Of a stretch of DNA of 64,000 nucleotides, positions 21,986 to 57,995 are shown in pieces (the first letter of the stretch is position 1; each line of letters opens with the position of its first letter). A program made the position numbers and the translations under genes. The notes beneath the pieces were generated by a model. That model did no database searches. It was not told where the DNA came from and saw only the letters and a list, made by a program, of their open reading frames with translations. The stretch spans positions 4,898,001 to 4,962,000 of the forward strand of contig OZ024750.1 of assembly GCA_964016885.1 (NCBI GenBank), written 5' to 3'. This stretch comes from Eledone cirrhosa (Eukaryota).

Positions 21986-24900
21986 GTGAGTATTCCTCAA
22001 TTTTATTCAACAAACAAACCCTGTGTATTAATCTATATAATGTCTGTTAGTGTAAAGGTTTGGGGAGTAGTTATTAGTGTGTTTGATTCACGAGTATAAT
22101 AAGGTCTTGAGTTCGTTTACCGATGGCACCTTGTATGCTTGAACTTAAAACTTGATATAATATACATGTGGGCCACTGAGGTCTTCTCTGTGGACCTCAG
22201 ACCTTTTCAAAATGTCATGTGTAAGATATGATATCATATACATGTTCACCATTGAGTTATTCTCTGTGGGAACCATTGCTTTACGGTAATCAATCATTTT
22301 AGTGTTGAAAGATTTAATATCGATATAAACAGTCTGTTTATATTTATCTAAATCGACCACAATGTCACGGTGGCCATTAATGGTTTCGAATTTAGGCACA
22401 AGACTAGCAATCTAGCGGGAGAGGATAGTATTTCACTGGTATTTTATATCGTTAAACTCAGAAGGATGAAAAGTGAAGTTTACATCGGTGGGATTTGAAA
22501 TCAAAACAGTTTGTGTGACGCTCTAACGATCCTGCTAATCTGCCATCCTCTGACAGGGCAAGATTAAGCTTGCAGAGGGTCCTTGGCTGAAAATTTGACA
22601 GTCACCACCACCAACAACAACAAGAACAAGAACACCAACACTACCACCACCACCACCACCAACACTACCACCACCACTACCACCACCACCACCGCAAAAA
22701 CAACAACATCAACAACCATAGCCACCACCATACAAAATTAGATTAAGCTTACGTAGGGGCCCTGGGTGAACATTTCCCAGCCACAACCATAACCACCACC
22801 ATCACCACCACCACCACCACCACCACCACCACCACCACCACCACCACCACCACCACCACCACCACCATCACCACCACCACCATCACCACCACCACCATCA
22901 CCACCACCACCATCATCACCACCACCACCACCATACAGAATCGGATTTAGCTTGCATGGGGGTCTCTGGTTGACAATTAATCGGAGTACTTCCGTATTAT
23001 TAATGGCAGCAAATAAATTGAATGGTACCTTAAACATTGCGGGGCAGCCCTTACTGTCGCCCACTCACCACTGCCCCTTAATCCACCACTGACCTCTGGT
23101 GGCTTATAATTCTTTCTAAAATTGGCCACCAGAGGTCAAGCAATTTGTGGGGAAAGAAGAAAGTCAATTACATTGGCCCAATTATGTAACTGGTATTATA
23201 TATTATCGACCTCAGAAGGACGAAAGGCAAGGTTAACGATTGACCTGACCTTAGCGAGATTTGAATTGAGAACGTAAAATAGCGGGAACAAACACTGCTA
23301 AACATTACATCCGACGCTCTAACGATTCTGTCAATACCCAACACACACACACACCACCACACCACCACCACCACCACACACACCACCACACCACCACCAC
23401 CCCAACACACCACCACACCACCACCACCACACACACCACCACACCACCACCACCCCAACACACACCACCACCACCACCACCACCACAACACACCACCACC
23501 ACCGCCGCCGCCGCCACTGCCGCCCTGGTGGCTAATAATGGCTGCTAATCTACCGGATGTTTCGGCTTATAGTAAAAGTCCAAGAAAATCTCTTTGTAAA
23601 GTGAATATATTTTTATGTTCAGTAGTCAATAAAATATATTTACTTAACAAACTACAAAAGTGACGCTGTGTCAGTTGAACCTGCACCATTGAATATCTTA
23701 TTGAATCAACCTGAGGGAAGTTGATCCGTTTAACAAATAAAACATAAAACTGATCCAACTTTGATTTATATTCTTTTGTTTCTTTTATTTTGTTTGTTTC
23801 GTTTATTGGTTTCAATCATAAAGCCGCGGCCATCCTGGGGCACCGCCGAAGTTAAGGACCGAAATTCTCACTCACTTGAGGGAGGTTTTATTCTCTGAAG
23901 TCCTGCTGTCCAGCTCTCCTGAGAGTTTCTTACCACTACTATCCATCTCTTTCTCTCTCTCTGTACATATATATATATATATATATATTTGCACATAACA
24001 TCACAGCTTCAAATTTAGCTAAACTACCTAGCCGTAGGAACACGTGCAACCCAGTAGTTAGTACTAACTGTAATTGTAGGAATCGGGTTGACTGCCCCCT
24101 ATCCGGGAAATGCCTCTCTAGTAACATTGTCTACAAATGTAAGGTTGAAACACCCACGTCCCGTAGGGCCTACATAGGGTTAACCGCCAATAGATTCAGA
24201 TGGACCATAACGCACCAAAGTACTCAATACTTAGAGTAGTAGAGTGGGTAATAGGAACGAGTGGGACCCCGACGGCTGAGCTCAAGCCGTTTCGACGGCT
24301 AATTCTGGACTGGAATTAGCCGTCGAAACGGCTTGAGCTCAGCCGTCGGGGTCCCACTCGTTCCTATATATATATAATATATATATATATATATATATAT
24401 ATATATATATATATTCTACGCATATGTAGACATCTAGATCGAATCCTCCGTCGCAAGTCTCACCACTTAAACCAGCAAATATTATATCTTGATTCTATTC
24501 CTTGTTTTACAGTCGCTCGTCATTGGATAAAAGAGATCAGCTGATACGAATCCCTGAAGATGGCGCTTTGGCTGAAGCTCTCCGAACACGTGGCGTCTTT
24601 GGACAACTAGCAACATCAAAATTTCGACCTATTGAAAAGGGACGTATCTTGGCAACTCACCGAAGGTATCGAAGTGAGATTAATGGCGCCAATTTATTAT
24701 TAATGGTAAGACCCTAATTATGTCTCGTTTGCTGGCTTAGACTAAATCGAGGCGGTGCTCCAGTATGGCCAAAATCAAAGAATAAACGAATGCCAGAACA
24801 TATATATATATATGTGTGTGTTTGTGTGTGTGTGTGTGTACGTAAGTTCGTATATGTGTATGTATGTGTGTCTGTATGTATATTTGTATGAATGTATGTG

Positions 24901-27900
24901 TGTATGTAAGTGTGTGTGTCTCTCTGTCTACACACACACACACACACACACACACACACACACACACACACGATATACTGACAGCGGCGACAAGAGGTTC
25001 AAAGCCAATTATATAAGCTAGCTCGAGTCAATACATACAAGATAAGATGAAATGTTGTTCATTACTCTGGAGATTAATCAAAATATTTCTCTCTGGAATA
25101 GTATTACAGTTTATCTATTGTAATGGCGTCATTATTAACATCCAGGTGGCGCTGTATGTATGGACCTATAACTCCCTAAGGGAGTCGTAGAAGCGCCATA
25201 TTGACAGATGGCGTTTCTTGGGGAATTAATTTTTAAAACCTGGCGGAGTCTATCTCTTCTCCAGGTCTGAATACAGCAGATTTCTTCCAGAGAAGGATAG
25301 AGAGTGAGAGAAAGGAAGTGAGAAAGAGATATAGAGGAAGAATCGACCCAGTACTTGACTGGTATTTTTTTATCGACCTTAAATTGACTCATACCCTATT
25401 CACTTCCCAGACATATGTACATTATTCTATGTACTATACATGCACCTTTGATGAGTTCTAGTGCACCTGAGCACTGTACACAATAATTTCATTATTATTA
25501 TTATTAAAGTCGAAGTTGACCTCGGAGGTGGCGCAGTAGCAGGTGATAAAATATAATTGGAGTAGTGACTAATTTATTTTATGTCTCTCCTTTGTTCTGT
25601 CCTACACCATCTTGTTTTTGTGTTCTGTGTGCTGTGTACCTAGGTTGTGCATGCATTATATCTGAGAGTGTGTGTGTGTTTTTATTTATATATTTATATG
25701 TTTATTATTTTGTCACTAGTTGGTTGCTTGTTCTATCAGTGTATGTCTGGTTTGTTTTATTAGTTTGGTTTTTATGTGTCTCTTTATAACAACTGTCTTT
25801 ATAACAACTATATGGTTATGTGTATGAGCATTTATATACATTTATTTTAAATATTTCAAATAACTCTTTTCCATGATTATTTTCTAGGAATGGGACGAGT
25901 CCCTTGCTTCTTTAGCTCAAGGCCAAGCCGAAAGATGTGTTTTTGGACCAGGCAACCTCTTCTTGTGAGTATTTAAGGATACACACTTGCCCGCATTCAC
26001 ACACACACACACACACACACACACACACACACACACGCGCGCGCGCGTTAAAATGTCTACCAGTGTTAAAGTATCCATGTTTCTACCACTGTTAGTGTCC
26101 ATGTTTCTACCAGTGTTAAAGTATCCATGTTTCTACCACTGTTAGCGTCCATGTTTCTACCAGTGTTAAAGTATCCATGTGTCTACCATTGTTAGTGTAT
26201 CCATGTTTCTACCAGTGTTAAAGTATCCATGTTTCTACCAGTGTTAAAGTATCCATGTTTCTACCATTGTTAGTATCCATGTTTCTACCTGTGTTAAAGT
26301 GTCCATGTTTCTACCAATGTTGAAAGATTTTATTGTCCTGTCGTTCCACGGTAATCCAACTCCCTCTCCATTCCAGCCTCAATGGAACCAATGTCGGTCA
26401 GAATTCAGTGGCAGTACCTGGTAAATTAAACCCAGAAGAAATAGTAGAAATATTCCAGTCTCAGTCATCAAACTATATTTATTCCTCCAATACCTGTCAG
26501 ACAGGTAAAAACTGTGAGGCATATACACAGGTAAAGTAATATATTATAATGTTGGTGCCTATACTCAGGTAAGGTAATATATTATAATGTTGGTGTCTAT
26601 ACACAGGTAAAGTAATATATTATAATGTTGGTGCCTATACACAGGTAAGGTAATATATTATAATGTTGGTGCCTATACACAGGTAAAGTAATATATTATA
26701 ATGTTGGTGCCTATACACAGGTAAAGTAATATATTATAATGTTGGTGCCTATACATAGGTAAGATAATATATTTTAATGTTGGTGCCTATACACAGGTAA
26801 GATAATACATTACAATGTTGGTGCTGGTTGTTGTTGCTGCTGTTACTGTTGTATGTATGAACCTGTAATTCACGAGGGAGTCGTAGTGACGCCATATTGA
26901 GATACGGCGTTTCTGGGGCATTTTAAAACCTGTTGGAACCCGTCTCTTCTCCAGGCCTGAATACAGCAGATTTCTTCCAGAGAAGGATAGAGAGTGAGAG
27001 AAAGTAAATAGAAGCGAGAAAGAGATATAGAGGAAGAATCGATCCCAGTATAAGACCGATACTTTTTATTGACCTTCAATGGATGAAAGGCAAAGTTGAC
27101 CTCGATGGGATTTGAACACAGAGAGCAGAGAGCCCAAACGAATACCACAATGTATTCTATCTGATATTCTAACGACTCTGTCAATTTGCCACCTTTATAC
27201 TTGTGTTAATAGGTAAGAACAACGGCTGCCATGTTGGCTAGAGACAATCGTCAATGAGCGATTATCTGAGAAACTACTGAGTTCAACTGAATGTAGTCTA
27301 TTAAAGATGTTTTTATTTATGTCAAATGTTCTCCCCATTTGCAGATGATATGGTATGAAACCAATAAAGTTGGTTGTGGTCTTCACTTCTGCAACAATCT
27401 TCAATTTCCTGATGGTTCCACTGAAAAACAATGGTGGATTTACGTCTGTGATTATTCTCCACCGTAAGGAAAATAACAGCTTTCTCTTTTTATAATAATG
27501 TATATATATATTTTTGATAATGATTAAATAAAATGTGCAAGAAAATTATTGTAACTGATTTAAATGAGTGTAAAATGAAATTTAACAATTGCTTGAGTAA
27601 CAAGAGGGAGAAGGTCAAGGAAAATCGAAGATTCAAGTATTTTTACATAGAATGTTATAATCAAGGAATTATTAATCTAACATTTTTCTATAAACCCTGT
27701 CGAATTTTGACGGGTACTATGCTAGTACACAAATAAATTCAATAATTGATATCTAAATCGATTTCTTAGTTTGATCTTAGTTTATTTTTCGTAGTGGAAA
27801 TTATCCAGAACACCCGTTCTTCCCATCAACACACGAGGCATGTGAGCTCTGTAATTTAAGTCCAGGAACTCGCTGTTTGCATAATCAATGTAGTAAGTAC

Positions 27901-57815: not shown

Positions 57816-57995
57816 TATAGGAGAAAGTATGGCCCCGACGGCAGAGCTCAAGCCGTTTCGACGGCTATTTCTGGACTAAAGTCCTTTAGTCCGTCGGGGT
57901 CATACTTTCTCCTATTACCCACTCTACTACCCTAAGTATTGAGTACTCTGGTGCGTTATGGTCCATCTGGTTCCTTACCACAACTCCTTCGTTAT
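57816..57995 (+). mobile_element. Hairpin-plus-tail element, copy F (part of right arm replaced)
   Basis: Left arm intact, loop TGGACTA, tail intact. Confidence 0.7.

Follow-up and report, generated by a model that had tools for sequence, protein, structure and literature searches.

Palindromic stubs with two loop orientations in Eledone cirrhosa, likely 3'-end pieces of a TA-targeting Penelope-like retrotransposon

Results

Palindromic stubs of the window

A family of short palindromic elements lying in TA runs was studied in 64,000 nt of Eledone cirrhosa DNA (GCA_964016885.1, contig OZ024750.1, positions 4,898,001-4,962,000 of the forward strand), the whole of which is called the window. 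The DNA was of animal type, with many microsatellites, C2H2 zinc-finger arrays and an open reading frame (ORF) for a HAD hydrolase. The elements, here called stubs, are likely to be dead 3'-end pieces of a TA-targeting Penelope-like retrotransposon, and their origin from a Penelope-like element (PLE) is regarded as highly probable.

Comparison of the window with itself and profile searches gave ten pieces, six with a tail (copies A-F) and four without, which together cover 1,303 of the 64,000 bases (about 2%; Table 1). A first-pass annotation had described six copies of a palindrome of about 115 nt with a one-sided tail of about 80 nt. This description fits copies B, C and D in full, whereas the tail of A is cut to 57 nt, the centre of E is deleted and F is rearranged. 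The three single arms that it had reported were found again, at about 31918-31975, 45914-45973 and 58198-58256, and the short fourth piece at 59424-59451 was added. A TA-type run was present at the arm end of all ten pieces and at the tail end of five of the six tailed copies. The sequence beyond the shortened tail of copy A had no homologue elsewhere in the window and was treated as flank. Intact palindromes lacking a tail were absent among the ten pieces.

Table 1. Positions of the stub pieces and of predicted features of copy B
Feature	Position	Strand	Description
Copy A	24197..24366	-	Arms 24254-24305 and 24313-24364; loop 24306-24312, flip
Copy A, tail	24197-24253	-	Cut to 57 nt; abuts non-TA sequence
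Copy B	32724..32918	+	Arms 32726-32777 and 32785-32836; loop 32778-32784, flip
Copy B, tail	32837-32916	+	TA runs flank the copy at either end
Copy B, predicted type-I hammerhead 3' half	32796..32825	+	Sense arm; C11.1, GAAA at 32797-32800
Copy B, predicted stem III	32800-32804/32814-32818	+	GAGCTC in the loop
Copy B, predicted UC cleavage triplet	ends 32819	+	Predicted stem I 3' strand from 32820
Copy B, tail motif CTC...TTGAG-YRCY	32846..32871	+	In a small hairpin
Copy C	38751..38944	+	Arms 38753-38804 and 38811-38862; 6-nt loop 38805-38810, flip; tail 38863-38942
Copy D	45587..45781	+	Arms 45589-45640 and 45648-45699, 4 mismatches
Copy D, loop and tail	45641-45647; 45700-45779	+	Loop reversed (flop); tail
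Copy E	48578..48721	+	Third arm type; tail 48640-48719
Copy F	57818..57994	+	TA-side arm intact, 57820-57871; loop 57872-57878 reversed (flop); tail 57913-57992
Single arm	31905..31976	+	Ends in a TA run; carries a flip-type loop remnant
Single arm	45911..45976	+	No tail; inner letters resemble the non-palindromic upstream consensus of the reads
Single arm	58196..58257	-	No tail; same type as the 45911 arm; inner end fused inside another repeat
Stub	59424..59451	-	28 nt of the arm's outer end, without tail, in a TA/TG run

The arm consists of 52 bp and a TAT that is common to all. The two arms of a copy were identical in A, B and C (0/52 mismatches each) and differed at 4/52 positions in D, while between arm types 6 (A-B), 4 (A-C), 6 (B-C) and 7-9 (A-D) mismatches per 52 were counted. 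The four arm motifs and both loop readings of the first-pass annotation were confirmed at their places. Its statement that arms match within copies and differ between them holds for A, B and C, but D is the exception within a copy and B and D share one arm type, being 1/52 apart on the tail side of D, so that the arms are specific to subfamilies rather than strictly to copies. The two arms of D have decayed independently, and their unrepaired mismatches argue against continued homogenisation. Copy E has lost its centre between short direct repeats, and no loop remains in its palindrome of about 60 nt, the outer pairs of which are mismatched at 3/25 positions (by eye). The tail-side arm of F carries a small secondary palindrome in place of its inner part, with 1/22 outer mismatches (by eye). 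This new palindrome, at 57872-57892, is made of loop letters and resembles a templated repair insertion.

Read with the tail on the right-hand side, the loop is CAGTCCA in A, TAGTCCA in B, AGTCCA (6 nt) in C and TGGACTA in D and F, giving a core of AGTCC (flip) in A, B and C and of GGACT (flop) in D and F. Copy B folds with a z score of -21.6, and none of 200 shuffles folded equally well. Three junction forms were observed among the five palindromes (A, C and B/D/F), which favours a repeated origin. The joint between arm and tail lies at the same base in all six tailed copies, across three arm types. Tail site 36 varies together with the arm type, and five of the six copies have the same tail end. 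B and D are nearest to each other in tail site 5, yet their loops are opposite.

The single arms have a common TA-side end and varying inner ends, the pattern of a fixed 3' end with 5' truncation. The arm at 45911..45976 was interpreted as an insertion that is truncated at its 5' end and stops at the first TA site, and that at 31905..31976 is possibly a palindrome minus most of its second arm. A MITE-like (miniature inverted-repeat transposable element) stretch at 58258-58415 is joined to the single arm at 58257 and is followed by a 44-nt palindrome (58372-58415).

Abundance and forms in sequencing reads

Copy B was used as the reference for reads or contigs of four of the 12 listed runs (X10, X11, X1 and X7). 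Matches were found for 21,845 of 12,467,656 reads in X10 and 22,659 of 12,785,554 in X11, about 0.18% each, and for 21,916 of 16,285,364 contigs in X1, which has the same organism label. Under the other organism label (X7), 4 of 17,468,210 contigs matched, too few to claim presence.

The letter G of the reversed loop at position 32779 was carried by 169 of 388 and 190 of 358 reads (359 of 746 pooled, 48%), a share that rests on this position, the partner positions 32781 and 32783 not being among the variants listed (86 of 126 are unlisted), so that, with some G-bearing reads having no or one other difference, it may include variants other than flop. The G-bearing reads start at about 19 and 22 places only and are thus not independent. 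The read data at 32779 are consistent with about half of the loops being flop, but do not prove it.

Read depth dropped sharply at the loop. In 927 and 753 reads and in 101 contigs the palindrome was left at 32778 for a non-palindromic sequence common to them; 589 and 433 reads left it at 32789 for a related sequence, and 836 and 952 reads passed from the arm directly into TA. As hairpins may be under-sequenced, these counts are not copy proportions. The consensus beyond 32778 reached an agreement of only 0.46-0.58, but the final 21 letters of the contig consensus were the same as in one contig of the other run. The sequence beyond 32789 is similar to the inner ends of two of the single arms (45911 and 58257). 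Longer, non-palindromic forms resembling a source evidently exist in the genome; the window itself contains no long source copy, in which a direct pLTR (pseudo-LTR) or partial tandem arrangement would be expected. An upstream motif derived from the reads had no match in the window. Reads that switched strand between loop and tail were also observed, with joints at 32779-32848 (54 and 113 reads) and 32782-32845 (31 and 111 reads) and one or two starts; they may stem from insertions that have tail sequence at either side.

A predicted ribozyme half in the arm

On the tail-bearing strand the arm contains, in order, C-GAAA, a stem III of 5 bp whose loop holds GAGCTC, then UC and a strand rich in G. 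From its letters, this reads as the 3' half of a putative type-I hammerhead ribozyme, with the centre of the palindrome where stem II would be. PLE hammerheads have been described as having a conserved G10.1-C11.1 pair and a palindromic loop III and as varying strongly within one genome (PMC4209133), and the arm holds GAAA, A15.1-U16.1, a stem III with a palindromic loop, a UH site and C11.1. Stem I may extend into the 9-11 nt of the arm that vary. A scan of the window for the half motif gave nine matches, eight of them in the stub family and one in a TA run. Among shuffled arms the motif occurred in 154 of 20,000; where a 5-bp hairpin was present, 161 of 6,760 shuffles showed it. Every stub ends or inverts inside the predicted stem II, without the CUGANGA half of the core. 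Lacking this half and an ORF, the stubs would be expected neither to cleave themselves nor to encode anything.

Three complete-looking type-I hammerheads, belonging to other PLE-like families, were seen at 58556, 50326 and 32093 (minus strand). They have a long stem II and a palindromic stem III and lie near TA runs. The descriptor for a complete type-I hammerhead was passed by three sites in the window and by none in 30 block shuffles. A weaker candidate lies at 55158 (+). An exact 20-nt tandem duplication with CTGATGA occurs at 38633-38671, 80 nt upstream of copy C, where no GAAA half matches.

The tail

Besides the stub tails, four stretches carried the motif CTC...TTGAG-YRCY, each with a TA run following after 29-64 nt; the scan gave 12 matches, three of them unrelated. 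The other, unrelated-looking stretches lie at 54813-54833 and 58847-58869 (+) and at 39030-39051 and 50197-50218 (-). In another family the motif stands downstream of the complete hammerhead core at 50326. A 12-nt block of the tail had nine matches in the window against 1.28 expected (0 of 100 shuffles), six of the nine being in the stub family. These PLEs may use the motif generally, as a signal for protein binding or for priming.

PLEs of the Hydra clade insert into (TA)n (PMC8557442). Three of six Hydra consensus sequences in the supplement of that paper extend about 55-80 nt beyond a TAT(AT) site and carry a CTC..GAG hairpin, and Hydra-2_Amil shares two blocks with the stub tail, matching at 6/6 and 11/12 positions (by eye and post hoc). 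The placing of the first site in these sequences is our own, and likeness of the tail motif is not a criterion of their authors. The stubs are probably of Hydra type.

Other elements in the window and other searches

A scan of metagenomes for the tail gave no match. A gapped arm pattern matched two metagenome and two genome loci, which were rejected as chance (G+C 62-67%, no arm or tail context). At the Rfam gathering score the only match was 5S-like, and relaxed thresholds added generic hairpins only; the 5S rRNA-like sequence, just over the gathering score, lies at 14013-14113 (-).

A second palindromic family was observed at 2109-2306, with a self-match of 79% and ends in (ATC/GAT)n runs, and solo arms related to it lie at 59591-59688, 2560-2606 and 6056-6126. 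An abundant family of 180-220 bp resembling short interspersed elements (SINEs) is present at 14560-14746, 16298-16864, 30081-30317, 35306-35591, 43903-44126, 46309-46518, 61429-61624 and 63518-63694, including head-to-head inverted pairs at 16396-16670 and 16602-16864. The zinc-finger array genes are duplicated locally (2921-4556 with 9654-10813, and 6888-7829 with 11322-12244), their flanks having been duplicated too, at 92-98% identity. The HAD hydrolase frame at 17619-18338 is uninterrupted over 239 aa, and its exact sequence was absent from the protein collection. Two tandem arrays, at 19190-19772 (123-bp units) and 40949-42109 (99-bp units), have consensus units that appear related, and the former reads as a repeated peptide like that of long interspersed elements (LINEs).

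Discussion

PLEs typically form inverted copies truncated at the 5' end, carry a tail at one end and insert into microsatellites (PMC8557442, PMC8969392), and each of copies A-F pairs an inverted, 5'-truncated copy with a tail confined to one end. The architecture of the stubs is already known for PLEs. Palindromes have been reported at the inverted junctions of PLEs and explained as products of self-priming on an antisense template (PMC3846280). In vitro, a PLE protein cleaves and extends both target strands and starts at two RNA sites, the interval between which is the tail (PMC11167929). How the inverted end is formed, the tail placed and the second end joined is stated to be unresolved in PMC8557442 and PMC11167929. 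No description of flip and flop loops in PLE palindromes, or of twin priming by PLEs, was found in the open-access literature.

The loops may be accounted for by an insertion in which two primers act on one RNA. At its end the source RNA would carry a type-I hammerhead and, after it, two sites for priming: the outer TAT of the arm (site 1) and, 80 nt beyond, the end of the tail (site 2). A protein with reverse transcriptase (RT) and GIY-YIG domains would nick both strands of the (TA)n target and extend one strand at each site. After the TA run, the top strand of a stub begins with the antisense copy from site 1 and the bottom strand with that from site 2. Reverse transcription would stall within stem II of the hammerhead, one of the cDNAs would fold back over a 5-nt loop and make a sense copy of the arm, and this new arm would anneal to the other cDNA, after which the gap would be filled. 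The cDNA that turned would donate the loop, giving flip from the site-2 cDNA and flop from the site-1 cDNA, and insertions in which neither turned would leave single arms. With two cDNAs on a single RNA, both arms would come from one molecule and the tail would stand on one side only. A single folded-back cDNA yields only the orientation of A, B and C, so that D and F require a tail-bearing second cDNA, a later inversion or an inverted master copy. The complete account, in which the stubs are 3' ends of a PLE, the inverted arm was made at insertion and the loop came from whichever cDNA turned, is given a probability of roughly 0.58. This twin-priming scheme is favoured because it would explain the identical arms, the one-sided tail, the stereotyped junction, the near-equal orientations and the single arms, all of its steps being inferred. 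It can be proposed only tentatively that the loops preserve a fossil record of symmetric twin priming in the genome, with both strands primed on one RNA and a U-turn in stem II. The earlier idea of a non-autonomous element mobilised through a hairpin intermediate fits the fold-back palindrome, but the homogenisation proposed with it does not fit copy D. The first-pass annotation had also named a PLE RT among the ORFs to look for in long copies.

A number of observations speak against the preferred account. CUGANGA was not seen in up to 30 loose letters upstream, among the 19 of 656 loose ends listed. Rfam gave no hammerhead for the arm, even at relaxed thresholds, but since two complete-looking controls in the same stretches were missed as well, that test is powerless. 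Pair counting across nine distinct arms gave no compensatory change in stem III, and none of the double kind in a competing hairpin either; this hairpin, which buries GAAA, is favoured by the minimum-energy fold. Loop III measures 9 nt here against 1-3 nt in the published Hydra table. The tail of 80 nt exceeds the 30-40 nt usually quoted for PLEs (PMC8557442), and the exact strings of the element that were searched for were absent from the supplements of PMC8557442, PMC13282606 and PMC8967140. Motifs of the PLE ORF (RT, GIY-YIG) were absent from the six frames of the window, although stubs are not expected to keep them. The limits on the flop share given above count here too, as do two observations on the loops, taken up below: the reciprocal junctions and a tree preference that hangs on a single site.

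Hairpin-loop micro-inversions are known in plastid DNA, and the perfect 52-bp arms are unstable in the window: E and F are rearranged, and so, probably, is the arm at 31905. The junctions of B and of D and F are exact reciprocals, as plain inversion of an existing loop gives. The stubs could share the same PLE origin and have arisen by a self-priming turn in one orientation, already proposed for PLE palindromes (PMC3846280), with the loop inverted later by template switching or by recombination between arms. This is considered rather unlikely: the flop share of about 48% would need repeated flipping, which is expected to even the arms, and flop copy D keeps its 4/52 mismatches. Fold-back at the short hairpins of one upstream contig would, moreover, leave a loop of 8 or 10 nt; loop-length variants do occur in the reads, but loops shorter by 1 nt were a minority (78 and 27 reads) and a 5-nt loop insertion was not found among the variants listed. 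It is also improbable that finished stubs, palindrome and tail together, were transcribed and mobilised again by a PLE protein, flip and flop being lineages inherited from rare old inversions. Three junction forms among five palindromes, further loop indels in the reads, the opposite loops of B and D despite their closeness in tail site 5, and the many non-palindromic copies running on upstream do not agree with such lineages. The highly stereotyped junction and the tail end shared by five of six copies would suit them, as would a tail holding a protein-binding site (PMC11167929). Parsimony prefers two loop changes over one by one step (26 against 27), so the two fixed lineages that the first-pass annotation had named as its own counter-explanation are only slightly disfavoured on the tree.

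Parvoviral ends consist of a terminal palindrome followed by a unique stretch and occur in two reciprocal loop orientations. The near-equal flip and flop and the succession of palindrome and unique stretch in the stubs would fit a DNA element with such a resolved hairpin end, or flipping by a tyrosine recombinase of the Crypton kind. Both ends of the stubs lie in TA runs, however, and the single arms are all tail-less and 5'-truncated; the hammerhead half and the Hydra-like tail motif would be coincidence. Pattern scans of viral contigs, a collection that may not cover such animal elements, gave 0 and 0 matches, and the lead to Cryptons and Eulor elements was dropped on the descriptions in PMC5753468 and PMC3212892. 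An element of this kind is therefore very improbable, and the parvovirus-like resolution suggested at first gives way to the many non-palindromic genomic copies and the PLE signatures. By the same signatures the stubs, which the first-pass annotation could not assign to a known family, are tentatively placed with the PLEs. Many DNA transposon ends begin with GG next to TA, as the arms do, and short-read polishing could in principle have homogenised arms. A TA-target MITE with 52-bp terminal inverted repeats, inserted in either orientation beside an unrelated 80-nt repeat, or an artefact of assembly or polishing that evened the arms, is nevertheless hardly credible. A MITE would not be expected to keep an invariant joint to the tail in six of six tailed copies and three arm types, with arm type tracking tail site 36, nor to lack an intact tail-less palindrome among ten pieces where non-palindromic upstream forms are common. 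As for an artefact, the raw reads hold both loop letters and the non-palindromic continuations, and D was not homogenised.

If the twin-priming account is true, one step would explain the inverted pseudo-LTR (pLTR), the one-sided tail and the joining of the second end, and thousands of twin-priming events would be countable in one genome. A stub this abundant, in which the junction is fixed and the loop asymmetric, serves as a natural marker of the strand copied through the junction, and phased copy counts could separate twin priming, single self-priming and later inversion. Such stubs resemble MITEs or microRNA hairpins and may be mis-annotated as these.

Comparison with known systems

Parvoviral termini share the reciprocal loop orientations with the stubs, in which no Rep ORF was seen and for which the scanned viral contigs gave no match. 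Cryptons have a tyrosine recombinase ORF, and animal members are reported to have short direct repeats and to lack terminal inverted repeats (PMC3212892), whereas the stubs have 52-bp inverted arms and no recombinase ORF.

The canonical PLE insertion (Arkhipova et al. 2013, PMC3846280) likewise has a head-to-head inverted pLTR whose junction is palindromic, and an optional tail borne by only one of the arms. In the stubs the whole insertion is 195 nt long, the tail is 80 nt instead of 31 nt, the junction is fixed inside the predicted stem II and the loop is found either way round. The green anole protein Poseidon PAc (Frangieh et al. 2024, PMC11167929) has AT-rich targets and is predicted to be a dimer; both target strands are cut and extended, and two RT starts bound the tail, as is proposed here. 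RT by PAc begins without homology to the target; the two sites of the stubs, in contrast, end in TA letters that match it. The joining step was left open in that study.

Hydra-clade PLEs (Hydra-2_Amil, Hydra-2_Ajap, Hydra-1_Crog, Hydra-1_Obim and Penelope-13_HM; Craig et al. 2021, PMC8557442) likewise have (TA)n targets and a type-I hammerhead near the 3' end, with a stem III of 3-4 bp and a TA site soon after, and for Penelope-13_HM an inverted 5'-truncated copy was noted, as in the stubs. The stubs differ from them in having no ORF, no CUGANGA half that could be seen and the longer loop III, and in the flip and flop of the loop, which the accessible part of PMC8557442 does not describe for Hydra PLEs. 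The clade is also marked by protein motifs (RWK and DKT, with no CCHH), for which the stubs yielded no ORF. Animal non-LTR retrozymes (bioRxiv 10.64898/2026.07.22.740005) are likewise non-coding and PLE-derived and carry a type-I hammerhead sequence. They are tandem direct repeats with complete hammerheads, whereas the stubs are dispersed and inverted and hold half a core.

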